64,000 nt of DNA from Escherichia phage Bf23, in sequence record OR083247.1. One strand, 5' to 3'. Under the pieces are notes generated by a model, which was not told the DNA's origin, did not search any database, and saw nothing but the letters and a program-made list of their open reading frames with translations. Position 1 is the first letter of the stretch. The number at the start of each line of letters is the position of its first letter. The position numbers and the translations under genes are program-made. Shown here in pieces: positions 7,972 to 64,000 of the stretch.

Positions 7972-7977
7972 AAAATT

Positions 7978-8030
7978 TATTTGCTTTCAGGAAAATTTTT
8001 CTGTATAATAGATTTATAAATTTGAGAGAG
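7978..8030 (+). promoter_or_regulatory. Strong sigma70 early promoter, near-identical to the classical T5 PN25 promoter as I recall it
   Basis: TTGCTT (7981-7986), 17-bp spacer, TATAAT (8004-8009), leader ATAAATTTGAGAGAGGAG; surrounding sequence TCATAAAAAATTTATTTGCTTTCAGGAAAATTTTTCTGTATAATAGATT. Confidence 0.75.
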
Positions 8031-9887: not shown

Positions 9888-10196
9888 ATGAGCGAACAGG
9901 TAAATCAAAACTATGAAGGACACGTTGATGACCAGTCCATCATACTTTGGGAGAAGGAGGGGGAACAAGTAAGATTAACAGTATCTGAATTTCGTGGGAA
10001 TCTATACATGGGTATTCGTTACTGGCTTCTTGATATTAATGATGAATGGTTTCCAACGAAATCTGGCTTCTCTTTTCCTTACACCCTAGAAACAACATCA
10101 CAGCTTTTCTATGCGTTTACACAGATTCTTAGCGAATCTGAGGTTTTACATGAAGTACAGAAACGAGCTGAAGAACTCAAAGCCAAGAATGCCTAG
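9888..10196 (+). CDS. PC4/Sub1-like ssDNA-binding protein
   Basis: VRLTVSEFRGNLYMGIRYW and PTKSGFSFP resemble the PC4 C-terminal domain (..VSVRDFKGK.LIDIREYW..P.RKGISL). A PC4-like protein is known from T5-like phages. Confidence 0.55.
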   Translation: MSEQVNQNYEGHVDDQSIILWEKEGEQVRLTVSEFRGNLYMGIRYWLLDINDEWFPTKSGFSFPYTLETTSQLFYAFTQILSESEVLHEVQKRAEELKAKNA

Positions 10197-36281: not shown

Positions 36282-36390
36282 AGTTAATTTCTCCTCTTTA
36301 ATAACAATATTATAATAGTATTGGAAAATTTTATCAAGAAATTTTTATTTTTCCATAAAGAAAAGGAGGACATAAAGTCCTCCTCCAATA

Positions 36391-40071: not shown

Positions 40072-40085
40072 AATTTATTTTTCCC

Positions 40086-40118
40086 AATAAAAAAGGCTCT
40101 GGGCAAATCACCCAGAGC
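40086..40118 (-). terminator. Rho-independent terminator upstream of the tape measure gene
   Basis: On the - strand: GGCTCTGGG-loop-CCCAGAGCC followed by TTTTTTATT; shares the module TTTTTTATTGGGAAAAATAAAT with 45079-45100. Confidence 0.65.
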
Positions 40119-44567: not shown

Positions 44568-45079
44568 TATACTCTCCTATATACTTCAATAATAGTACGA
44601 ATATGCTCTGGAATACCAGATTTAGTATTATTGAATGTTACTGTTTCACCACCAATTGTTTTAGCTTGGCGATAATCTTGTTTGTGCCAATGATCTACTA
44701 GCATACATGCTGCAAGTTTGAGATCTTCAGGCATTGGATTAAATCCACCTTGTGTATATTCTACGTCCATATAACCTTCCGGAGGGTTAAATTTAAGAAG
44801 TATAACCCCATCAGAATACAGCTTATACTGTTCGGGATCTATCTCCTTATCATTAATAGTCATTTTGGTTACTGAAGTAGCTGAGGGAGAACTTAAAAAG
44901 TATTTTTTTCGAGCAGGTTTTGTATTGATTAACTGGTCTACCGCATCAGCATCATCCATACCTAAAAGGCTAGTAATCAGCGCATTGGCAGCAGTAATCA
45001 TCACCTCTACTCCAGATTCTAGTTCCGGTCGTTTTAACCCGCCGTATAATCTATAGTCTTCAGCTGTGATTATTTGCAT
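44567..45079 (-). CDS. Putative head completion / head-tail adaptor protein (170 aa)
   Basis: Gene order directly downstream of the major capsid gene and terminator. Confidence 0.45.
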   Translation of the reverse strand: MQIITAEDYRLYGGLKRPELESGVEVMITAANALITSLLGMDDADAVDQLINTKPARKKYFLSSPSATSVTKMTINDKEIDPEQYKLYSDGVILLKFNPPEGYMDVEYTQGGFNPMPEDLKLAACMLVDHWHKQDYRQAKTIGGETVTFNNTKSGIPEHIRTIIEVYRRV

Positions 45080-45089
45080 TTATTTTTCC

Positions 45090-45118
45090 CAATAAAAAAG
45101 GAGAGCCGAAGCTCTCCT
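45090..45118 (-). terminator. Rho-independent terminator downstream of the major capsid gene
   Basis: On the - strand: GGAGAGC-TTCG-GCTCTCC followed by TTTTTTATT; same flanking module as 40086-40118. Confidence 0.7.
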
Positions 45119-53022: not shown

Positions 53023-53047
53023 ATAATCTCCTATTATAAAAATGTAT

Positions 53048-53095
53048 TTGCTTTTATCTCTCTATTTTGCTATAATAGACTCATAAATTAGAAAT
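53048..53095 (+). promoter_or_regulatory. sigma70 early promoter for llp
   Basis: TTGCTT (53048-53053), 17-bp spacer, TATAAT (53071-53076), leader TCATAAATTAGAAATGGAGAG. Confidence 0.65.
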
Positions 53096-53977: not shown

Positions 53978-54215
53978 TATTATAGTTGCTTTTATTATCG
54001 GGATAATCGCGGGAGTTTTCGGAATGACTGCGGCTATTAACAAGCATCGTAAGTATACTGCGGAAGTATCGCGGGAGATTGCGGAGAGGGAGCGGAAGTT
54101 TGATGAGAAACGTGCGGAGTTTGAGCGGGAGTGGTCGGATGGATCTCGGGCGTCGCGGAAGAGATTTCGTGAGTTTAGACCTGAACATCGGTTTGATGAC
54201 CCTTCTATGCGCTAA
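53970..54215 (+). CDS. Small membrane protein with highly charged E/R/K-rich C-terminal helix (81 aa)
   Basis: 8-nt overlap with the upstream ORF; N-terminal helix IIVAFIIGIIAGVFGMTAAI, tail REIAERERKFDEKRAEFEREW; GAG/CGG-rich codons. Confidence 0.45.
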   Translation: MFSIIVAFIIGIIAGVFGMTAAINKHRKYTAEVSREIAERERKFDEKRAEFEREWSDGSRASRKRFREFRPEHRFDDPSMR

Positions 54216-54379
54216 TTAACTTTTTGCCAAATTTCATAAGATTACACATGAGGATGTGCTCACTGCCTCCGGCGAAAATACTTAGTCTGCTAACCGCCAC
54301 ACCCGTTATTATTACCATGCTAACTGTTTCACCCTGCAACCATTTTAATTGCAAGGTGAAACAATTTCAACCTTAATTA

Positions 54380-55114
54380 TTATGCGACTTTTAGTTTTTC
54401 AATATATTGTTGCGGGCTGCAACTATATTCTGCGCGTTCTTCCTCGGTCATACTTTCCCAACATAATTGCAAGCGATCGGCTAGGAACTGATAATCATTA
54501 TCATCGTCGAGCGATTCATCGATAAAGGTTTCACCTATCAATGTCACGCCGATTGATAGAATATCATTAATAGCTTGTGCGTCCAGCGTTTTAAACCCGT
54601 ATGATGCCGCCGCCGATAGCACGCCCTTATGATCATCAATCATCGTGAAATCAGCGTTTGGATATAGCTGTTTAAATAACTCAAAGTAATGGCTTTTATA
54701 TATAGCATCTTTACTGTGGTATATTTCGCTAACTTTATCAGCCTCAAAATATTTGTGTAGTGTGTCGCGGGAAAATACACGGATATTACTATCCCCACGC
54801 CCTCGCAGTCCTTGTTTGCGTAGGTAATAATAATCTGACTTACTCATCAGTCGAGCGGTACAAATAATGTTTAACGTGTTAACGTCATTCATACATTGGC
54901 GCATATATGTAACAAGCGGCAATAGTGTGTCCTGCATTATTAAATCATGTTTACATGCTTCATTCTTATATTTATTTAAATCTAAATTACCATCGTTATC
55001 AAAGCAAGGCGCTACGCGATGGAATGAGTTAACGATAGTGCCGTCCAGATCCCAGATCATGACGCGGGAAATATGCGGGAAATTACGGGTAATATTCGTT
55101 TTAACTTGATTCAT
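54380..55114 (-). CDS. dmp: 5'-deoxyribonucleotidase, HAD family, T5 Dmp-like (244 aa)
   Basis: HAD motif I in VMIWDLDGTIVNS; size and position among pre-early-type genes. Confidence 0.65.
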   Translation of the reverse strand: MNQVKTNITRNFPHISRVMIWDLDGTIVNSFHRVAPCFDNDGNLDLNKYKNEACKHDLIMQDTLLPLVTYMRQCMNDVNTLNIICTARLMSKSDYYYLRKQGLRGRGDSNIRVFSRDTLHKYFEADKVSEIYHSKDAIYKSHYFELFKQLYPNADFTMIDDHKGVLSAAASYGFKTLDAQAINDILSIGVTLIGETFIDESLDDDNDYQFLADRLQLCWESMTEEERAEYSCSPQQYIEKLKVA

Positions 55115-55188
55115 TTTGTTACGTTCTCCATTAAAGGGATTAAATTAAATTAATCCAGCCCACTGGATGGGCTGGGCTATTCCAGCTA

Positions 55189-55584
55189 TTAAAGACCATA
55201 AGCCAACGCATCAGCGATGACGGTAATATCTTCACCCGATACATCGGAACGGATGCCCGCGCATGTAAATACTTTTGCGCTCATTAGCTGATCATCAAGG
55301 CAAGCGGGACAAGGGGCAACTACTGCGAAAGCTAAACCTGATTTTACGGCATCGATGATAATCGTTTCTTGTTTCACCGTGTCAATATAAACGCCTTTCG
55401 CCTTGATGCGGCTGGATAACTTGCCCGTGGTATAGGCGAAAGTAGTGATCTGTAGCGCCTCGTTAAACTCGATTAAATCATCGACAACGTGACCGGCCTC
55501 AACGTGATACCGCTCACCATTAGAATAAACTAGGACGATAGAAGACTGAGCGCGATCGAATGGAATACGGTTAGAAATAGCCAT
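55189..55584 (-). CDS. Hypothetical protein (131 aa)
   Basis: ORF in the - strand pre-early chain; GC-richer codons. Confidence 0.5.
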   Translation of the reverse strand: MAISNRIPFDRAQSSIVLVYSNGERYHVEAGHVVDDLIEFNEALQITTFAYTTGKLSSRIKAKGVYIDTVKQETIIIDAVKSGLAFAVVAPCPACLDDQLMSAKVFTCAGIRSDVSGEDITVIADALAYGL

Positions 55585-55653
55585 GTTTATAACTCCAATT
55601 AATTTAATAAACTTTTATAGCGGCGGTATATTTCAACCGCCAACCTGATTTAT

Positions 55654-57318
55654 TTACGCAAAAAATTTACCATTCTTAAAGTCAATCAAGGTGCGCTGAC
55701 CGTTTGCATAGGTAATAACATGCGTTTGTGTCCAGCTTGACGCGCCAACGTTGTAACCCATGTCCAGACTACCAGACACGCCAGCGGTGTATACGCCGCC
55801 GTAAATACTGGCGGTATGAGTGTGCCCCGTGTTCAGTTTACCCAATTTCTTAAATTGCTTCGGATTGCCACGGCTCCCGTTAATGCCATTGTGACCGTGT
55901 ACGCCGCATTCAATGCCTGCAATCTTGAAAGATTGGTCAGTCGTTAGGAAAATGGCGTTAAACTCGCAACCTGCAACCTTGCGCAACGCATAATCTAGCA
56001 CGTTGAAAGTATCGTCTTTTTCTGCAATAGCTCCATAAATCGCGGCATTAAGGCGGTGATATAGTTCGGCGTTGGCTGGATCGTCTTTGATGTTAGCATT
56101 ACGATCATCCAGCCAACGGGATAGCGCCAGATCGTGGTTTGATTCTACGATGATCGTTTGAGAAAAATCGCGCTCCATTGATTCCAACACGCGACCGGTA
56201 TCGATAAGATCATCCAGAACTTTATCACGTCCGGCGGCGTATTGTTTTGCTAGGAATACACCCGAAGCGCGATTGTGATGGTTGCGTGATGTAAAATCAT
56301 GCACGTCATGGACAAATTGATATTTTGGTTTAAGAATATCAAGCAAGCTATTTTCGCCAGCCCATGACGCAGCGGCGCAATCATCATCCAGTTTTTCAGC
56401 GTGGACGTCGCCATATTGTAAACCTAAAACGTGCCCCGTTGTTTCATAGCATCCGGCGGGAGTAGCGCAAACATTCAGATCGTAAAAAACGCCGCTTTCG
56501 TCCATAGTTTCAAGCTGGCGCACAAAAAACTCACCGTCCTCGTCGAACTCGACAACAAGCGCACCGAAATTATGCAACGCTTCCGCTTTCTGTCCTGCTT
56601 TCTGCTGGATGTAGTTTTTTAGCGTTGCCGTGCCGGTTGAATACATACGGCGCACTACTTCACCTTTTAAAGCTGGGACGCTCTCGGCGGTGATTTTAGC
56701 CGCTCCAATTGCCAGACCTTCAAGGTTGAGCGCGGTTGCAGTTTCAGCAAATCCAGAAAGCGGATAATCTGCGGTAGGTAAAACGTTAATTTCAGCCATG
56801 AAAGCAAAGCGGCGATTATTCAAAAACACGTTTTTATTGCAGATATATTTGTCAAATGCGGAATCATATTTGATTCCTTCGGCGCCCTCGCCATTTTGAA
56901 AACCGTTTTTGTTATAAATAAACTTGCTAACCAGCAAATCAGCGCCGATATATTTAGCAAATTGCTCCAGTGAGGCTAAAAAGTTTTTATGCGGGAAAGT
57001 ATTATTCTGAATCGACGTAATAATAAAGCGTTTACCCTGCTTTACTTCCCAGCTTTCAACCGTGCTAGAAACAATCCCCGCCGCTTCTGGGCGCTCATCG
57101 TTTTTAATGGCTTTTGCTACTTTCGCCGCTTTCGGTTTAGCTGGTTTATTTGCTTCCAACCAATCACAAATCGCGGTCGAGTGTTTTGTAGTATCATAGA
57201 CCGCCTTTGATATATCGTCGCAGACTTCCAGTTTAGTGGCGCGCAGACGTTTACCATAGAAATTAAAGTCAGCGGCCATTTTCAGGATAACGGTTTGTTT
57301 TTCTGCGGAAATAATCAT
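55654..57318 (-). CDS. A1: Pre-early protein A1-like (554 aa), putative metallophosphoesterase-type nuclease
   Basis: Size close to that recalled for T5 A1; metallophosphatase-like His clusters (..GVHGHNGINGSRG.., ..GHTHTASIYGG..); neighbours dmp and A2-like genes. Confidence 0.65.
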   Translation of the reverse strand: MIISAEKQTVILKMAADFNFYGKRLRATKLEVCDDISKAVYDTTKHSTAICDWLEANKPAKPKAAKVAKAIKNDERPEAAGIVSSTVESWEVKQGKRFIITSIQNNTFPHKNFLASLEQFAKYIGADLLVSKFIYNKNGFQNGEGAEGIKYDSAFDKYICNKNVFLNNRRFAFMAEINVLPTADYPLSGFAETATALNLEGLAIGAAKITAESVPALKGEVVRRMYSTGTATLKNYIQQKAGQKAEALHNFGALVVEFDEDGEFFVRQLETMDESGVFYDLNVCATPAGCYETTGHVLGLQYGDVHAEKLDDDCAAASWAGENSLLDILKPKYQFVHDVHDFTSRNHHNRASGVFLAKQYAAGRDKVLDDLIDTGRVLESMERDFSQTIIVESNHDLALSRWLDDRNANIKDDPANAELYHRLNAAIYGAIAEKDDTFNVLDYALRKVAGCEFNAIFLTTDQSFKIAGIECGVHGHNGINGSRGNPKQFKKLGKLNTGHTHTASIYGGVYTAGVSGSLDMGYNVGASSWTQTHVITYANGQRTLIDFKNGKFFA

Positions 57319-57414
57319 AGTAATAAAGCTCCATTAAAGGGATTAAAAACGTTTGTTATTGGCAAATATTGCCAAATATAACGCCTTGAATAATAGGCGT
57401 TATAATTTGCAACA

Positions 57415-57612
57415 TTAATTTAAAGGCATAAGGCTAGAACTAACACCACAAGCAACGGCGGCAATAAAACAAATCAGACCTAAACGCTTTGCCAATTTAG
57501 ACTTACGCTTAAAATAATATGAATCTAAATCATTTTGAAAGTATGCAAATAATAATGAGGCCGCCATAATAAATAAGCCTAGAATTAACGATTCAGTGGG
57601 GTAAAAGATCAT
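57415..57612 (-). CDS. Small membrane protein (65 aa; start moved to ATG 57612 with RBS GGAG)
   Basis: Two hydrophobic helices; the upstream in-frame extension to 57660 would read through a perfect 20-bp palindrome. Confidence 0.4.
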   Translation of the reverse strand: MIFYPTESLILGLFIMAASLLFAYFQNDLDSYYFKRKSKLAKRLGLICFIAAVACGVSSSLMPLN

Positions 57613-57669
57613 TTTAATAACTCCAGTCAAAGGGAAATTATAGTGGGGAATATTCCCCACTAATTAAAT

Positions 57670-58086
57670 TTATTCACCTGCGGCTTGTTTTACTTCATCG
57701 GCAACGCCTAACAGTTGCGCCACGGCGTCCAGCGTTTCTAACTTTGCGCTTTCCAGACTTGCCAAATCGTCGGCGTCTTTGATAATGCCGGAATCAATAG
57801 CATGTTTAGCGATAACGCGTACATAATGAGCTTTGCGAATTGAACTACCGCCGCCAACTTTGCGCGGCTTATCGCTTTTCTGATACGCTTTCGCGCTGGT
57901 CAATTTTGAGCGAACAGACACGGGAGAAGCCGCGCCAACTGTTTTAGCAATCTCTTTCAGGCCGTCGCTGTTGGCGAACTCCAAGCCGTTTTCGTTGATC
58001 AACTGTTGATACATGGTAACAGCCTGTTGGGTGTTTTCTTCATTCCAAGCAAATTTTGCGGATTTTTCGGTTTTAACGTTAGCCAT
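57670..58086 (-). CDS. A2: Pre-early protein A2-like, putative DNA-binding protein (138 aa)
   Basis: Size and position relative to the A1-like gene; Lys/Ala-rich. Confidence 0.55.
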   Translation of the reverse strand: MANVKTEKSAKFAWNEENTQQAVTMYQQLINENGLEFANSDGLKEIAKTVGAASPVSVRSKLTSAKAYQKSDKPRKVGGGSSIRKAHYVRVIAKHAIDSGIIKDADDLASLESAKLETLDAVAQLLGVADEVKQAAGE

Positions 58087-58184
58087 GATTATAACTCCTA
58101 TTGAATTAATTTAAGGGATAAGATTAACATAATGTTAATCGTTATATACCCCAAACTACTGGGGTATATAAAGTTAACACTAAG

Positions 58185-58436
58185 TTATAAAACAGCTTCC
58201 CATTTTTCGTTGCGTTGAACAACCTTTACAACGTCGCCGGATTTAACGCGAACGCTAAAAACGGTTTTGCCGTTGTTACTACGTTCATTTTCAGCGTATA
58301 CCGCGTCGATTGTATCAAACGGCATAAGCGCCACACCTTTAATGCGTTCGGTTTTTCCGGTTAATTCGTCCGTTTTAGTAACGAAAGGAATAAAAACGGA
58401 TTGACCAATTTTAGGCGCGGTAATAACGTTTTTCAT
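58185..58436 (-). CDS. Hypothetical protein (83 aa)
   Basis: ORF with RBS AGGAG; leader contains a 10-bp-stem hairpin. Confidence 0.45.
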   Translation of the reverse strand: MKNVITAPKIGQSVFIPFVTKTDELTGKTERIKGVALMPFDTIDAVYAENERSNNGKTVFSVRVKSGDVVKVVQRNEKWEAVL

Positions 58437-58663
58437 AGTATAAACTCCTAGTTATTTGGGGATTGTTCCGCATTACCTGCTAGAAAGTAGCAGGTAATAA
58501 GAAAAAATCCGCTCGCCAATATAATCAATTTAAAGAACTCCACTCAGGCCGCTATATCCCAGTTAGGGGGCGGGACACATTATGGTAAGTGCCGACCGTC
58601 AAATTGTATCAAGTTATCGCTCTTATCGAACTGGGTACATCTTAAAGCCTATCGGCTAGGGTG

Positions 58664-58867
58664 TCAAACAATTTTTTGCAGTTTTTTATGATTTTCTTTC
58701 AGGTCAATCATAATATTTCGCCAGATCATTTCCAGACCTTGCTGGCGGCCTTTCTTGTACTGCGTGAATCTATATCTTACGGATTGTTGAGCTACTGTCA
58801 ACAATTTTTTAGTAGTAACATCTAATTTTTTAGCTGGTTTACCAGTGATCAAAAGCGTTTGTTTCAT
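58664..58867 (-). CDS. Small basic protein (67 aa) bracketed by 24-bp inverted repeats
   Basis: Lys/Arg/Gln-rich ORF with RBS AAGGA; inverted repeats at 58633-58654 and 58904-58927. Confidence 0.4.
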   Translation of the reverse strand: MKQTLLITGKPAKKLDVTTKKLLTVAQQSVRYRFTQYKKGRQQGLEMIWRNIMIDLKENHKKLQKIV

Positions 58868-59320
58868 ATCTGCGATTCCTTATATAATTGATAAGTTTAC
58901 CGCCGATAGACTTTAAGATGTACCCAATTTTTAAAGAGCGTGGCGGTAAACTTCCCGCCGTGTAGTTCGTCATTGCCGCCCTACGAGATAAATAATAGGG
59001 GATTCCCAAAAATGGCGCAACCTTATTTTTGTAAAGAAACGTAAAGAAAGCAAATACTCGCAAGGTGTCCGGCGATTGCCCAAGTTTAAAGGAAACGGGC
59101 GCACGAATACCATAAAACCCAGCAGGTTGGCAAGTAATTTTTTCATTTATATTTGCCTTACCCTACTTGACAAAATCTAAAAAGCTCGTGGTAGCGATAA
59201 ACGAGGGTAGGCAATGCAATGGCCTGGCTAAAACTTTCATCGCGTTCTAGGGCGTTTTAGGCGCATTCTAGCCTTGTTGATAACTTATCCCCAGAAGCAA
59301 AAATGAAATTTTCCTAGTTA

Positions 59321-59351
59321 TCCACTTGACTTTTATTTTCCAGTGGATAAC
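59321..59351. promoter_or_regulatory. Inverted pair of DnaA-box-like sequences
   Basis: AGTTATCCACT..AGTGGATAACT around a 14-bp AT-rich centre. Confidence 0.5.
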
Positions 59352-59494
59352 TACTTATTTTATGAAATAAATTAATTGACTTTTATTTGTTAGTATGCAT
59401 CGGAAAGATAGCAGACTAATAATTGCTAGGATGATAATCATGCTGGTGGATTGTAACGGCTTAAACTATCAGCGGACTATTAATCACGGAAAAT

Positions 59495-59545
59495 CTCGTT
59501 AGCTAACTAACTATTTCATGATGTATAATATACATATAAATTAAT
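59495..59545 (+). promoter_or_regulatory. Early-family sigma70 promoter facing the + strand cassette
   Basis: TATAAT (59524-59529) with the family leader ATATAAATTAATGAGAAATAA; -35 is weak (AGCTAA). Confidence 0.5.
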
Positions 59546-59633
59546 GAGAAATAATAATTATAATAAATAATAACTACAGTAAATAATAACTATAAGAAAC
59601 TATCGGCCTAAGTGAGAACCACTATCATTTAAG

Positions 59634-59741
59634 TTATCCACAAGTTTATTAACAGCACAAAATGATTTGACACGATAGGCGGCGATATAAAGACTTATCC
59701 ACAGACTTATCCACAGGTTATCCTACTGTATAAATATACAG
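59634..59741. promoter_or_regulatory. Cluster of three consensus DnaA boxes plus a LexA-box-like palindrome
   Basis: TTATCCACA at 59634-59642, 59695-59703 and 59707-59715; CTGTATAAATATACAG (CTGT-N8-ACAG) at 59726-59741. Confidence 0.6.
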
Positions 59742-60007
59742 GGTAAATGGGTAGTGTTAACAACTGCAATCAATTTTAAGCGGCCTAAAACGCTTTCTAA
59801 CGAGCTAAATGCGGTGGGGTAATATTAAAGTAAAGCCTTCACCCGTCGCCCTGGTGGCTTCGCCGTGTTTTGCTCTTTACTATACCGCTGCGCGGTTAAC
59901 ATAAAAATAAGCGTTAGGCAAGGAAAATAAAAAGGTAAAATAATATTTGCCCCTAGAAAGAAAATACCTTTATCATTCACTCACCGATTAACGAGGGAGG
60001 CCAACAA

Positions 60008-61000
60008 ATGAGGCTATATAAACCAGATAACGCAACCGTCTTAAAAGGTGCGCTGCGTAACCTGCTGGACGGTAGCAGAACAACCAGCATTAAACACTTT
60101 GTTAACAAGGCCGAAGATATTCACCAAAACTTTTTTGATGATTTCGATGCCTATGATATGAGTAGTTTTTTACAACTGTATAAGCAAGGGGCAACGCTTG
60201 TTTTGTATAATCGAGATAATCACCTGCTTACTAGTAGGGGGCCGGATACCGATTTCATAATTGTAAAAGGTAGCACAGTAAAAGCCTATGACACTGGAGC
60301 GGGCTTAGAAGTTTTTTCAATAGAAAACTATGAAGCCAACCCCAATGATCTTTATGACGTTGAAAACTTTCTTGATTCATTTTGGCGTTATTTATCCGTT
60401 GGCTGGAATCGGTCAATTGGTGACGGGTATCGTCTGGCGGCTGTAATGACCTTTGATGATGATGGCAATTTTTTGCTACCGTCGGAAGTATACCCATACG
60501 TATATGATGGGGATATAGAAAGCGCGGGCTTTTCTTTCTGGAAAGAGGGGAATCAGCCTATTGACAACACGGAAAAACATGCTGTAAATTCTAACACTCA
60601 AAGCGTTAATACTCAAATCACTGAAAACAAAGGAAAAAACACCATGACCAAGATCGCTAATATTGTTGCCGCTAATAAATCCGCTGTTGTAAACGCTGCA
60701 AAACTGGAAGCGGGTAAAATTGCACTGACTCAAATTACGAAAGTAGCGGCTAAAAAAGCGCCGTTCATGATCAAAGGCTATATTGATACGCCGATTGGTC
60801 GAGTAGTGATTGCCAACCTGCTTAGCGTAGCGGTTGACCAGTACGCCCCGAGTAACCAGAAAGCGAAAGCGGTAGCAGGGGCAGCTATGGAAGCGGCAAT
60901 GCTAGAAATGGTGCAAAGTTTTAACATCGCTGAGATGATCGATGAAATGGTAAAAGGTATCGATATTTCTACTTTCACCGTTAACAACGAAAGCGAGTAA
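60008..61000 (+). CDS. Hypothetical protein (330 aa)
   Basis: ORF with RBS GAGGGAGG; Ala/Lys-rich C-terminal half; no motif. Confidence 0.5.
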   Translation: MRLYKPDNATVLKGALRNLLDGSRTTSIKHFVNKAEDIHQNFFDDFDAYDMSSFLQLYKQGATLVLYNRDNHLLTSRGPDTDFIIVKGSTVKAYDTGAGLEVFSIENYEANPNDLYDVENFLDSFWRYLSVGWNRSIGDGYRLAAVMTFDDDGNFLLPSEVYPYVYDGDIESAGFSFWKEGNQPIDNTEKHAVNSNTQSVNTQITENKGKNTMTKIANIVAANKSAVVNAAKLEAGKIALTQITKVAAKKAPFMIKGYIDTPIGRVVIANLLSVAVDQYAPSNQKAKAVAGAAMEAAMLEMVQSFNIAEMIDEMVKGIDISTFTVNNESE

Positions 61001-61065
61001 TAATATTAAGCGGGGATTGTTACCCCGCTTTAATGTTCCCTTGTTAATTAATAGGAGGCTAATTA

Positions 61066-61560
61066 ATGGCTGAAGAAAAATATGGCTTCTCACTGGGAGA
61101 AGTGAGCACGGCAAAACATGATATGATCATTTTGGTCGATTGCCATACTGGCTATTGCGGAGAAGGTTGGACGGAGGAACATTTTGTTCCAGCTGGCTGT
61201 AATCTGGACGCTTTCGCTCAGGAAATGGCTATTGATAATGCTTCTCGTTTTGGTAGCGATGGTTACGAAGACGAAGAAACTGGCGAATGGTATGAAAATG
61301 AAAACGTATATGCAAGCCTTTATCATTATCAGCTAAGTAAATCCGGCACATATGTAAACGGCGGCGATCCTATTAATTCCGTCATGAAATTAATTATTAA
61401 ATATGGCGGAGTAGAGATAGTTGGTAACAAAGCGGTAATATACGCAAACCGATTAAAACAGCTTGTTTATATTCCTGATAGTACCCGATGGGATGAATAT
61501 GCTGTTTTGCATGACGAATTGAAACGATGTTTCAATATTGAAACCTTACAAGTAGTCTAA
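61066..61560 (+). CDS. Hypothetical acidic protein (164 aa)
   Basis: ORF with RBS AGGAGG; no motif. Confidence 0.5.
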   Translation: MAEEKYGFSLGEVSTAKHDMIILVDCHTGYCGEGWTEEHFVPAGCNLDAFAQEMAIDNASRFGSDGYEDEETGEWYENENVYASLYHYQLSKSGTYVNGGDPINSVMKLIIKYGGVEIVGNKAVIYANRLKQLVYIPDSTRWDEYAVLHDELKRCFNIETLQVV

Positions 61561-61664
61561 TGTAAAGTTTTGTAAAGGTCGCCTTTTATGGTGGCCTTTT
61601 TTGTTATAATGCTTTTACACCAAAACGGTGGATTGAAAATTTCCCAAAAATTTGGAGGCTTAAA

Positions 61665-61895
61665 ATGGTTGCATATTCTTCTTCTGACGCTCTTTTCACT
61701 GGAAAAGGCTGGGTATCAAATCGCTGGATCATTCATGAAATGGTGCAAGAATACGGCATTGCTAAAACTTACACTACCATCCAGGCGCTTTATGATAATG
61801 ATCAAATTGATCAGCAAACGGCTGGTTTTTTGCTGGATACCCTGAAAGCGGAGCACTGTACTAAAAAACAAGCCGCCAAAATTGTTTTAATGTAA
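61665..61895 (+). CDS. Hypothetical protein (76 aa)
   Basis: ORF with RBS GGAGG upstream. Confidence 0.4.
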   Translation: MVAYSSSDALFTGKGWVSNRWIIHEMVQEYGIAKTYTTIQALYDNDQIDQQTAGFLLDTLKAEHCTKKQAAKIVLM

Positions 61896-61941
61896 TTAAT
61901 AACGGGGCGTTACTTTCGCCCCGCTAACTAGGAGAATGAAA

Positions 61942-62091
61942 ATGGTTATTTTTCGAGCTATTCTAGCAGGTATCTTGGGCGCTATTTTATCCCTTTTTGC
62001 TATAGCTTTTGGCGTTCACGCGGTTACTATTGGTGCTGGCATTGCTGTATTTTCTTATCTGCTGGGCTGCATGACTAGTAAAGGAGAATAA
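61942..62091 (+). CDS. Small hydrophobic membrane peptide (49 aa; not in the ORF track)
   Basis: RBS AGGAGAA then ATG; MVIFRAILAGILGAILSLFAIAFGVHAVTIGAGIAVFSYLLGCM.. Confidence 0.35.
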   Translation: MVIFRAILAGILGAILSLFAIAFGVHAVTIGAGIAVFSYLLGCMTSKGE

Positions 62092-62093
62092 AA

Positions 62094-62306
62094 ATGATCC
62101 GCAACGTTTCTCTTGCACGTTCGAAAGGCTTTAAGCTGGTGGATGTTAACACGTTCGAGCGGGAAGATTGTAAAATCGAATATGTAGCACGTAATAAAAA
62201 TGCCTTTCGTGTTACCGAGAAAAAATTCGATAAGCGGGGCAACGTGATAGCTGAAACGGTTAAACATTTTGCCACCTTTTACGCTGCATTTCGTGGGGTA
62301 CTATGA
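62094..62306 (+). CDS. Hypothetical basic protein (70 aa)
   Basis: ORF with RBS AGGAGAA upstream. Confidence 0.4.
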   Translation: MIRNVSLARSKGFKLVDVNTFEREDCKIEYVARNKNAFRVTEKKFDKRGNVIAETVKHFATFYAAFRGVL

Positions 62307-62427
62307 AAAGCGTTATTGTTGTTATCCTTGCAATGGTTGGAGGTTTTACCGCCACCTTATTTAAGAATGACCCCCTTTTACTGGGGGTTTTTATGCTTTT
62401 ATCTGGATACCTGATTGGGAGGTTATA
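62303..62427 (+). CDS. Small membrane peptide (41 aa; not in the ORF track)
   Basis: ATGA overlap with the upstream ORF; MKSVIVVILAMVGGFTATLF..LLGVFMLLSGYLIG. Confidence 0.3.
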
Positions 62428-62429
62428 AA

Positions 62430-62774
62430 ATGGTTATTTATGAAGGCAACCGCTTTGTTACTAATTGCCGTCCGGCATTACTAGCAAACTACTTAAATCA
62501 GCTTTCCCCAGCTTATAAGGGCGTCATTAATATTTATGAAGGCAAGGCGCATTATAAAATTAATGCGGTCGTTGCCCGTGAACTAGCGTTTCAATTTTTG
62601 ACCTTTGCATCTTGTGATATTCAGGTCATGGGTGAGGCGTTAATTGCAGAAAATGAAGATGATTTTATTAATATTTTTCGCAAAGTATGCACCGAGCGCC
62701 TGATAATGAAAGGCGCATATATTCAATCCACTGCGGATAGTATTGAAACAGCGTTTCGAAAGGTGGCACAATGA
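62430..62774 (+). CDS. Hypothetical protein (114 aa; start at ATG 62430 after RBS GGGAGG)
   Basis: ORF 62415-62774 in the track, trimmed to the ATG with a proper RBS. Confidence 0.45.
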   Translation: MVIYEGNRFVTNCRPALLANYLNQLSPAYKGVINIYEGKAHYKINAVVARELAFQFLTFASCDIQVMGEALIAENEDDFINIFRKVCTERLIMKGAYIQSTADSIETAFRKVAQ

Positions 62775-62874
62775 AATTATATATTTTCGCGGGTAATGTT
62801 GAGGCTGCAAATGATTCCGCTGGTGGCGATAACGTTCGCCACTATTGGCAAAAATATATTTACTAGGCGTTATT

Positions 62875-63069
62875 ATGAGCAATAAAATTATTATAACTAA
62901 AACTACCACAATGGTTGACGTTTTTTATGTGCCCGATACGCTGGAAAACCGGCGAGCGGTCGAGCGGGGCGAATATGATAGCGTTATTTATGATGCCGAT
63001 GGTTACTACCGGCATTTGGTCGATTCCTATGGGGAGGAGGAGAAGATCACGCATCAATTACCGGACTGA
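62875..63069 (+). CDS. Hypothetical protein (64 aa from ATG 62875)
   Basis: ORF 62845-63069 in the track begins at a TTG; the internal ATG is preferred. Confidence 0.4.
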   Translation: MSNKIIITKTTTMVDVFYVPDTLENRRAVERGEYDSVIYDADGYYRHLVDSYGEEEKITHQLPD

Positions 63070-63210
63070 TAACAAGCGGGGAGCAGATCCCCGTTTTTCA
63101 CGCCTCCAGTTAAATACCCCTTTGTTTTAGTATCCCCACCAAAATTAAACGCGTTAGAATGCGATTCAGGACGTTTTAGGCGTATATTAGAATTATTCAC
63201 TACGTAGGAA

Positions 63211-63320
63211 TACTGTATAAATATACAGTAGAATAACTTGGGGATAAGTCTGTGGATAACGCCTCAAAATGGCTGGGATTCTGTCAAGTCAAATCGTGCT
63301 GTTAATAAGTCTGTGGATAA
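63211..63320. promoter_or_regulatory. LexA-box-like palindrome plus two consensus DnaA boxes, in inverted orientation relative to 59634-59741
   Basis: TACTGTATAAATATACAGTA at 63211-63230; TGTGGATAA (reverse complement of TTATCCACA) at 63251-63259 and 63312-63320. Confidence 0.6.
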
Positions 63321-63351
63321 CTTAAATAACAGTGTTTCTCACTTCCGTTTT

Positions 63352-63507
63352 TAAATGCGAATCATTATCATTCGCATTTCACTATCTAACCGATAATCAT
63401 TCCACTTTTTAAATGAGATTGATTCTCATTTCACTTTCTAAATGCGAATTATTATCATTCTCATTCCGCTTTTTAAATGAGAATGATTCTTATTATCATT
63501 CTCATTT
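63352..63507. repeat. Cluster of four related palindromic repeats (AAATG(C/A)GAAT..ATTC(G/T)CATTT units)
   Basis: Four units, each an inverted repeat with 10-13-bp arms around a short AT spacer, at about 63352-63380, 63411-63432, 63440-63468 and 63474-63507. Confidence 0.7.
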
Positions 63508-63756: not shown

Positions 63757-64000
63757 AGATTTTTGTGACTTCGATGGGAGGGTGTGTGATTGTATAGGTT
63801 TGAGGGGAAGATGAGAGAGCGAGAAAAATTTGAGGGGATAGAAGGATGTGGGCGCAGGATTGGTGCGGAGCACCTGATTTGCGGGGATTTTGGGGAAGAG
63901 TTGAGATAATTTGGGAAGATTTGAGATAGGTGCAGAAAAAGTAAAATTTTATTAGCAAAATGGGGCAAAATAGCTTGACAAGTGAAAATTCTTGTGGATC

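Follow-up and report, generated by a model that had tools for sequence, protein, structure and literature searches.

A C-rich element 5' of the Shine-Dalgarno sequence marks translation start regions of pre-early genes in T5-like phages

The window, i.e., the whole stretch of DNA analyzed here, comprises 64,000 nucleotides of Escherichia phage Bf23 (sequence record OR083247.1). Its pre-early genes, those injected first, include dmp, A1, and A2, which were identified by approximately 89% DNA identity to annotated T5. A1 is an RNA-polymerase-associated, metallophosphoesterase-like protein. It is a major pre-early protein, and a share of up to 10% in newly synthesized membrane protein is quoted for it in bioRxiv 10.1101/866236. 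A preliminary description of this DNA had reported an identical 17-mer located 10–11 nt upstream of the ATG of dmp and A1, with a relative before a 65-aa gene and degenerate versions before A2 and an 83-aa gene, and all of these were recovered. The 17-mer, TAATCCCTTTAATGGAG, was present in two exact copies on the minus strand (55126–55142 and 57329–57345), and the identity extended to a 19-nt block, TTTAATCCCTTTAATGGAG (55126–55144 and 57329–57347). With up to three mismatches allowed, the 17-mer had 3 matches against a chance expectation of 0.25, and none of 100 shuffles reached 3; the repeat is thus non-random. In the dmp start region, the C-run occupies 55136–55138 and GGAG 55126–55129, followed by an 11-nt spacer and the ATG at 55114; in the A1 start region, the C-run is at 57339–57341, GGAG at 57329–57332, and the ATG at 57318 after a 10-nt spacer. 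Both genes thus have GGAG alone as the Shine-Dalgarno sequence (SD), with a spacing of 10–11 nt. A terminator-like hairpin, CCAGCCCATCCAGTGGGCTGG (55155–55175, minus strand), lies between a 131-aa gene and the dmp element.

The 19-mer is no private repeat of two genes but the best-preserved copy, or archetype, of a widespread element, which we call the C-box: a run of 3–5 C within an A/U-rich stretch, with approximately 24 nt from the first C to the ATG. Seven pre-early genes in the window carried it, whichever strand was the sense one. On the minus strand, the C-box and SD were found in front of the 65-aa membrane-protein gene (T5.005-like; TTTCCCTTTGACTGGAG, 57621–57637, ATG 57612, 8-nt spacer), A2 (ATCCCTTAAATTAATTCAATAGGAG, 58095–58119, ATG 58086), and the 83-aa gene (T5.007-like, DUF7177; ATCCCCAAATAACTAGGAG, 58445–58463, ATG 58436). 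Two plus-strand copies, absent from the preliminary description, were located in the divergent rightward pre-early operon, before a 164-aa gene (TCCCTTGTTAATTAATAGGAG, 61037–61057, ATG 61066) and a 76-aa T5.012-like gene (TCCCAAAAATTTGGAG, 61642–61657, ATG 61665), the latter arranged alike in T5. The box was missing at the 67-aa, 330-aa, and 131-aa pre-early genes of the window. A general lack of the box at first cistrons did not hold, since the 83-aa gene, the first cistron after P-D/E20, is boxed.

The start regions shared a common order of parts: an A/U-rich leader with the C-box, 5–16 A/U-rich nt, a minimal SD (usually U/C-UGGAG), 8–11 nt, and the ATG. The first C was placed at a median of −24 (sd 3.6; IQR 22–28), and the end of the box was separated from the SD by a median of 8 nt (IQR 6–12). 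This position corresponds to the 5' edge of the region covered by the 30S subunit. Most boxed start regions were preceded by terminator-like hairpins; however, the hairpin-to-box distance was far more variable than the box-to-start distance (sd 10.7 vs. 3.6 nt), and 13 of 40 boxes had no strong hairpin within 100 nt. A link of the element to the hairpins or terminators before it was therefore rejected: the C-box is anchored to the start codon and not to upstream hairpins.

The distribution of the element among temporal gene classes was determined by positional and strict-pattern tests, as a crude count of CCC anywhere upstream was too noisy owing to hairpin arms and tRNA ends. CCC was found at −34 to −12 in 40 of 67 pre-early start regions from seven genera, against an expectation of 11.3 ± 2.8, and none of 2000 shuffles exceeded 20. 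GGG was almost absent from the same regions, so the motif is orientation-specific. In an unbiased k-mer test, CCC was the top 3-mer (41/67 pre-early vs. 7/83 early/late regions, p = 2.5e-12), and CCCTT had 16 pre-early occurrences vs. 0. The strict pattern (W-N-CCC, G-free spacer, SD, 4–12 nt, start) was present at 5 of the 13 pre-early genes in the window vs. none of its 35 other genes and 1 of 58 T5 early genes (p = 7e-5). Klebsiella phage Torridgeon, a second-genus control, gave the same picture (8/9 pre-early vs. 7/40 other, p = 1e-4). The loose motif is frequent in coding sequence (53 per strand) and not rare genome-wide.

Among T5-like phages, the C-run and GGAG formed the most invariant intergenic columns, while the upstream hairpins were swapped between lineages. 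ATCCC and GGAG were invariant at the dmp start in 23 distinct relatives, ATCCCTTTAA was nearly invariant at the A1 start in 24 distinct relatives, and AATCCCTTAAATTA was invariant at the A2 start; at the start of the 83-aa gene, CAATCC was invariant and later C positions varied. Exact matches to the 17-mer in IMG/VR were located in front of A1 in 25 of 42 cases. Within Demerecviridae, the box recurred in seven genera, among which A1 identity was as low as 31–34%, and it did so before pre-early genes that are not homologous; other copies read CCCAUUAAC, CCCCAAAUA, and CCCAAUAAA. What was retained between genera was no more than the C-run with its A/U context, and the flanking sequence diverged, with AAUCCC, UAACCC, UUUUCCC, and AAACCG as 5' flanks by genus. 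The conservation beyond GGAG proposed earlier is thus real, strand-specific, start-linked, confined to pre-early genes, and, as it spans seven genera, much older than was visible from the sequence alone, but the 13 nt before GGAG do not form the conserved unit. Only A1, A2, and dmp among the pre-early proteins were conserved across the genera sampled (L045–L048). A1 homologues outside Demerecviridae (L039–L044) had no box; hence, the presence of A1 does not in itself entail a box. Overall, the C-box is sense-strand specific, keeps a fixed distance to the start codon, is limited to the pre-early class, and is maintained family-wide.

From this placement, we infer that the C-box is read in mRNA during translation initiation, and it probably tunes or controls translation of the pre-early genes. 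It is best understood as a putatively single-stranded RNA element that belongs to the translation initiation region of this one gene class. As to its mode of action, we tentatively favor a positive role, with the pyrimidine-rich box as a site where the host 30S subunit makes contact or stands by and ribosomal protein S1 as the candidate partner. S1 has a high affinity for polypyrimidines, including poly(C), and binds 5' of the SD; it is, to our knowledge, the sole known host candidate for such a contact. The C-box lies where an S1 or standby site is expected, directly 5' of the SD at about −15 to −35. Such a contact would allow cistrons with no more than a 4-nt SD and long spacing, such as A1 and dmp, to be translated at once by the unmodified host ribosome, so that they could compete with host mRNA during the first minutes that follow first-step DNA transfer. 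Against this reading, the C-run was predicted to be unpaired with a mean probability of only 0.54 (range 0.06–0.99). A reading as a ribosome enhancer is weakened by the near-absence of the box from early and late genes, since a general enhancer would be expected in highly expressed members of these classes too. Known E. coli enhancers are A/U-rich and not C-rich. At least one gene can do without the element: the 131-aa gene has no box here, although most of its orthologues are boxed.

The 5' flank is genus-specific despite near-identical ribosomes of several hosts, which fits a phage-encoded reader better than the ribosome itself. Such a reader is the core of another possible explanation, somewhat less likely in our estimation, in which a factor encoded by the first-step-transfer DNA recognizes the C-box beside GGAG on every boxed pre-early mRNA and acts either by preventing initiation or by cleaving the transcript. 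The outcome would be A1-dependent shut-off of pre-early protein synthesis, with A1 itself as a candidate reader. As in an operator, the element is shared by one temporal class of mRNA at the ribosome-binding site; the strict class specificity, the genus-specific flank expected with a co-evolving reader, the conservation of A1, A2, and dmp alone across L045–L048, and the possibility of autoregulation through the boxes on these three genes all point the same way, and T4 RegB provides a precedent for a low-information, class-specific, SD-linked target (PMC1702504). However, a search among pre-early proteins by domains, solved structures, and folds yielded no convincing RNA-binding reader: neither an RNA-binding nor an RNase domain was detected in any of them, A1 included, and A2 was modeled as a helical HTH/Myb/GcrA-like DNA binder. 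Moreover, several pre-early genes have no box, context must supply specificity given how common the loose motif is in coding sequence, and the pre-early switch is discussed as a matter of transcription, since A1 and RNA polymerase purify together (PMC7472727). By virtue of its conservation, the shared RNA-level operator of the preliminary description is well founded as a shared cis-acting element read in mRNA; its link to shut-off is, for the reasons just given, unsupported so far. That the box serves as the handle of a first-step-transfer factor, most economically A1, for a post-transcriptional class-wide switch-off, RegB-like but independently invented and extending throughout Demerecviridae, seems unlikely to us. 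Reading at the level of transcription or DNA is quite improbable. Here, the box would be recognized in the non-template strand, nascent RNA, or duplex, either by the DNA-binding protein A2 or by an RNA polymerase that A1 or a small pre-early protein has modified. It would tune read-through of the intercistronic hairpins or halt elongation at the time when pre-early transcription is to end. A1 and an 11-kDa pre-early protein do co-purify with RNA polymerase (PMC7472727), terminator-like hairpins precede most boxed regions, boxA-like sequences in the operon leaders indicate that read-through is actively managed, and the modeled fold of A2 is HTH/Myb-like. The anchoring of the box to ATG and SD rather than to the hairpin argues against this, as do the boxes without a nearby strong hairpin and the genome-wide frequency of the loose motif, and strict sense orientation is unexpected for a duplex-binding protein. 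Internal sigma-70 promoters were rejected as well: the spacing to TTGCCA-type hexamers was wrong, and no promoter-like match overlapped the boxes.

It is very unlikely that the box has no dedicated function. In that case, start-region cassettes would resemble each other through shared ancestry or gene conversion, as short homologies used in module shuffling, and compositional quirks would add to the similarity. The dmp and A1 leaders do swap a 24-nt cassette, ATTAATCTAATCCCTTWAATGGAG, among relatives, at least 15 nt were common to both leaders in 18 of 38 loci, and mosaic junctions fell just upstream of the C-box. Nevertheless, the element recurs before non-homologous genes in seven genera with the C-run alone conserved, which is too short for recombination, and it is under strong positional constraint and class-specific. 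We consider it highly improbable that a small hairpin between CCC and the G-G-(A)-G of the SD attenuates or conditions translation, in the manner of fourU or ROSE elements. Three C do stand opposite three G, about half of the boxes are 5–9 nt from GGAG, pairing was predicted in roughly half of short fragments, and ACCGC...GCGAGG in Vibrio IW18 and Providencia PR1 looks complementary. Predicted SD pairing was, however, below that of composition-matched shuffles (0.56 vs. 0.62, p = 0.014), in silico changes of C to A or C to U produced no consistent SD opening (0.34 vs. 0.40 and 0.39; p = 0.09 and 0.27), a 3-bp stem with a bulge is unstable at 37°C, and start regions with GAGA or GAGAG as the SD still have boxes. 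With neither the pair-probability nor the mutant tests supportive, an SD-occluding hairpin was rejected.

No mention of the motif was found in full-text searches of the T5 literature and in T5 papers. How T5 shuts off its pre-early genes, and how a few kilobases of DNA suffice for their rapid expression, is a 50-year-old question, with the switching mechanism still called unknown (PMC7472727), and a short, mutable, class-specific element before A1, A2, dmp, and their neighbors is a concrete handle on translation, mRNA fate, and shut-off. Continued pre-early expression kills the host, an outcome termed “mutual destruction” (PMC13250531), which makes the C-box relevant to the engineering of T5-like therapeutic phages. 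It is also relevant to the reuse of pre-early leaders in expression systems.

Among known systems, the site of host 30S and S1 contact that we tentatively favor resembles in its position the S1-dependent leaders and standby sites of E. coli and phage mRNAs, in which a single-stranded tract borders the SD directly on its 5' side, where the 30S footprint begins, and compensates for weak SDs. Unlike the C-box, known S1-dependent leaders are A/U- or U-rich and not class-specific, and we know of none described with a conserved CCC core. The epsilon enhancer of T7 gene 10, UUAACUUUA, is also a short non-SD sequence directly 5' of a phage SD, and its target in 16S rRNA is nt 458–466. The T5 archetype UUUAAUCCCUUUAAUGGAG resembles UUUAACUUUAAGAAGGAG with a UCC insertion. 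However, epsilon has no C-run, the conserved part of the C-box, and most boxes have no CUUUA: instead of UUAACUUUA next to the SD, the archetype has UUUAAUCCCUUUAAU, and most copies share the A/U context at most. Nor was one accessible 16S segment such as nt 458–466 targeted. The best E. coli 16S duplexes of 24 boxes fell in at least 8 different places, with a mean of −12.1 kcal/mol vs. −11.0 kcal/mol for shuffles; only three boxes, those of dmp and A1 (one identical sequence) and one of a Proteus phage, mapped near nt 448–449. Pairing to a single 16S site, including the region beside the epsilon target, was rejected since targets were scattered and energies were about at shuffle level. With boxA, the NusB/NusE antitermination signal, the archetype shares CUUUAA and an upstream hairpin as in rrn leaders. 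Compared to the boxA consensus GCUCUUUAACAA, the C-box lacks G and U at the defining positions of GCUC, and it decays to CCC and A/U in other genera. True boxA copies are located at 58932–58939 (minus strand) and 59872–59879 (plus strand), as well as in L045, L046, L047, L050, and L051; genuine boxA, GCTCTTTAA[C/A]AA, stands at other sites of these operon leaders in every genus examined, where it is perfectly conserved, and this coexistence excluded a degenerate boxA. The element belongs to no family of Rfam 15: a covariance-model search over 54000–63500 gave only three sub-threshold chance matches, none at a start region. The logic of an operator would resemble that of T4 RegB or RegA with unrelated parts. 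The T4 RegB/S1 target, like the C-box, marks a class of earliest genes by a low-information signature around GGAG in the ribosome-binding site, which makes the class treatable as a unit after transcription, with S1 involved. RegB depends on GGA together with an A-rich stretch on its 3' side and needs no 5' sequence (PMC1702504), whereas the C-box adds information 5' of GGAG in the form of the C-run; no RegB-like nuclease is known, or was found, among the pre-early proteins. Within the same phage, the T5 early-promoter leader, ATAAATTTGAGAGAGGAG, is likewise a class-specific signature of 5' leader and SD. It differs in being a purine-rich extended SD joined to the promoter, without a C-run and restricted to early genes, and its existence shows that T5 marks its gene classes in their start regions.

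The preliminary description reported two exact copies of the 17-mer TAATCCCTTTAATGGAG, before dmp (55126-55142, - strand) and before A1 (57329-57345, - strand). Exactly two were found in the window, at these positions, and a search allowing up to three mismatches returned 3 matches versus 0.25 expected. The identity of the two leaders extends to 19 nt (repeat family D15), and, promoters and injection-stop repeats aside, the 64 kb contain few other exact repeats of 17 nt or longer. Between the end of GGAG and the ATG there were 11 nt in dmp, 10 nt in A1, and 8 nt in the other pre-early genes. The related sequences reported before further pre-early genes were all located as well, and two additional copies, missing from that list, were detected on the + strand before the 164-aa and 76-aa genes. 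We designate as C-box the run of 3-5 C in the A/U-rich leader, just 5' of the Shine-Dalgarno sequence (SD). Another exact repeat, the 24-nt ATTTATTTTTCCCAATAAAAAAGG (family D9), lies between late genes at 40073-40096 and 45078-45101 (+), with a third copy (79%) at 36343.

The leftward pre-early operon begins near 59150 and extends to 54380 (-), and the divergent rightward one starts at 60008 (+). Segment 54300-59000 (-) shares 89-92% identity with T5-like phages (Tequintavirus); its equivalent in T5 is the left terminal repeat, the home of the first-step-transfer (pre-early) genes, there dmp, T5.002, A1, T5.005, A2, T5.007, and T5.008. Leaders of every pre-early gene were extracted from 43 IMG/VR loci around A1 homologues. 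In these relatives, the core ATCCC...GGAG was invariant or nearly so before dmp, A1, A2, and the 65-aa gene, partly kept (CAATCC) before the 83-aa gene, and weaker before T5.002. Since the hairpin directly upstream of the dmp box takes one of at least three unrelated forms, the C-box moves together with the gene. The leader of the 131-aa (T5.002-like) gene (55189-55584, -) has no C-box in the window or in four relatives (L016, L017, L023, L024) lacking T5.003, and in most relatives it contains AAATCCCTTATTAAACTAATTGGAG; this natural variation could be a ready-made test case.

In 18 of 38 loci, the leader of dmp had at least 15 nt in common with that of A1. The 24-nt cassette ATTAATCTAATCCCTT(T/A)AATGGAG precedes dmp in some phages and A1 in others, a placement that indicates exchange between the two start sites. 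Two A1-leader haplotypes were observed (loci L002, L010, L018, and L035 vs. L001 and others), and the dmp-type block ATTAATCTAATCCC in one of them provides evidence that the dmp and A1 start regions, separated by 2.2 kb, have undergone ectopic exchange. The exact 17-mer had 42 matches in IMG/VR: 25 before A1, 6 before dmp, 9 in terminator arms, and 2 elsewhere. The nine belong to one unrelated metagenomic phage group, where the 17-mer forms one arm of a terminator-like hairpin (AATGGAGCGTA...). This identity is due to chance; therefore, the 17-mer by itself is not diagnostic.

The decisive step was the comparison with annotated pre-early regions of six phages from six other genera: Klebsiella phage Torridgeon (Sugarlandvirus, A1 identity 72%), Pectobacterium phage My1 (Myunavirus, 66%), Proteus phage 1 (Novosibvirus, 42%), Vibrio phages phi 3 (Jesfedecavirus, 34%) and IW18 (Thalassavirus, 31%), and Providencia phage PR1 (Priunavirus). 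In all six, most intercistronic pre-early genes had a leader that was A/U-rich except for a C-run a few nt 5' of the SD (e.g., cctaaCCCCttaaataaaactGGAG, ctatatCCCattaactGGAG, tattttCCCtttaattAGGAG, aaattaaaCCCataaatGGAG), and many of the boxed genes had no homologue in T5. Apart from the C-run, these leaders shared no conserved feature. The box was frequently shrunk to AACC(G) in Priunavirus and Thalassavirus. Loci of A1 homologues outside the family did not contain the motif.

Of 67 pre-early start regions, 40 had CCC at -34..-12, compared with 11.3 +/- 2.8 predicted by the composition of these regions, and GGG was almost never seen in that interval. When 83 early and late start regions with similar intergenic space served as the reference, the most discriminating 3-mer was CCC (41/67 vs. 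7/83, p = 2.5e-12) and the most discriminating 5-mer CCCTT (16 vs. 0). The strict C-box pattern was found in 5/13 pre-early genes vs. 0/35 in the rest of the window and 1/58 in the T5 early region. For Torridgeon, the counts were 8/9 pre-early vs. 7/40 other genes. Early promoters (1277-1329, 7976-8028, 53043-53095, and others; repeat family D1) share the known conserved leader ATAAATTTGAGAGAGGAG, so early genes own a separate class-specific start region. Counted from the ATG, the first C of the box had a median position of -24 (sd 3.6), roughly where 30S subunit coverage ends on the 5' side, and 8 nt (IQR 6-12) separated the box end from the SD. Spacing from the upstream hairpin varied much more (sd 10.7), and one third of boxes had no strong hairpin nearby. 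The C-box is thus a sense-strand component of the translation start region. Together, the comparisons show a family-wide, class-specific, start-codon-anchored, sense-strand element.

We infer that the C-box acts in mRNA on translation initiation. Tentatively, it may be a positive element, offering the host ribosome, through S1, a pyrimidine contact or standby site; we lean to this role because A1 and dmp have GGAG alone with 10-11 nt spacing and need immediate synthesis by the unmodified host. The operator proposed in the preliminary description, which we hold somewhat less probable, fits about equally well with two features: the box is missing from early and late genes, and its flavour changes from genus to genus. 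Since the loose motif is frequent within coding sequence, a reader of the C-box would rely on start-region context, not sequence alone. Of the pre-early proteins, only A1, A2, and dmp were shared with L045-L048, distant relatives of four genera. For the 83-aa DUF7177 protein, a small beta-barrel, the Tudor/KOW/SH3-like matches were no more than weak, and no RNA-binding protein was identified among the candidate readers.

A co-transcriptional or DNA-level role is unlikely given the anchoring to the ATG, and a box without function even a little more so, set beside its recurrence across genera. Masking of the SD is the least probable explanation: predicted SD pairing with upstream sequence was slightly below that of shuffles, and in-silico replacement of the C-run had no consistent opening effect on the SD. 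A search for a common 16S rRNA pairing target of the boxes yielded none, and the C-box had no match in Rfam.

Identity with boxA was rejected; genuine boxA copies are present elsewhere in the same leaders. These rrn-type sequences occur in both divergent operons, at 58932-58939 (-, CGCTCTTTAAAAA), 58530-58538 (-, one mismatch, GTTCTTTAA), and 59872-59879 (+, TGCTCTTTACTAT), and in leaders of five distant relatives. Perfect GCTCTTTAACAA was found in the Klebsiella, Pectobacterium (2 copies), Proteus, and Providencia phages, the last, PR1, with 2 perfect copies and one GCTCTTTAAAAA; Vibrio IW18 had only a GCTCTTTAAGGC variant. Their presence suggests antitermination of the NusB/NusE type, by which RNA polymerase would pass the intercistronic hairpins. 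A literature search found no connection between boxA and T5. Directly upstream of the A2 C-box, a 19-nt near-perfect palindrome (GATTAACATTATGTTAATC, 58122-58140, -, one central mismatch) was unchanged across 25 distinct T5-like leaders, and in My1 a comparable inverted repeat, GAATAAC...GTTATTC, precedes A2. The palindrome resembles a protein operator more than a terminator. Near the terminal-repeat end, a purine-rich non-coding tract (63770-63930, +; about 9995-10150 in the T5 record) contains repeated GAGGGGA/GGGGAT/TTGGGAAG units; its - strand reads C-box-like TTCCCAAAT, ATCCCCTCAAAT, and TTCCCCAAAA, all without SD. The tract could be unrelated to the C-box or a site cluster for the same reader.

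No mention of the C-box was found by full-text literature searches or in the T5 papers Klimuk 2020 (PMC7472727), Davison (bioRxiv 10.1101/866236), bioRxiv 10.64898/2026.04.02.716235, and PMC13250531. Among described systems, the T4 RegB/S1 site (PMC1702504), the T7 epsilon enhancer, and S1-dependent leaders come closest, and all of them differ from the C-box in sequence; in T4 RegB and the C-box, the information is carried on opposite sides of GGAG.
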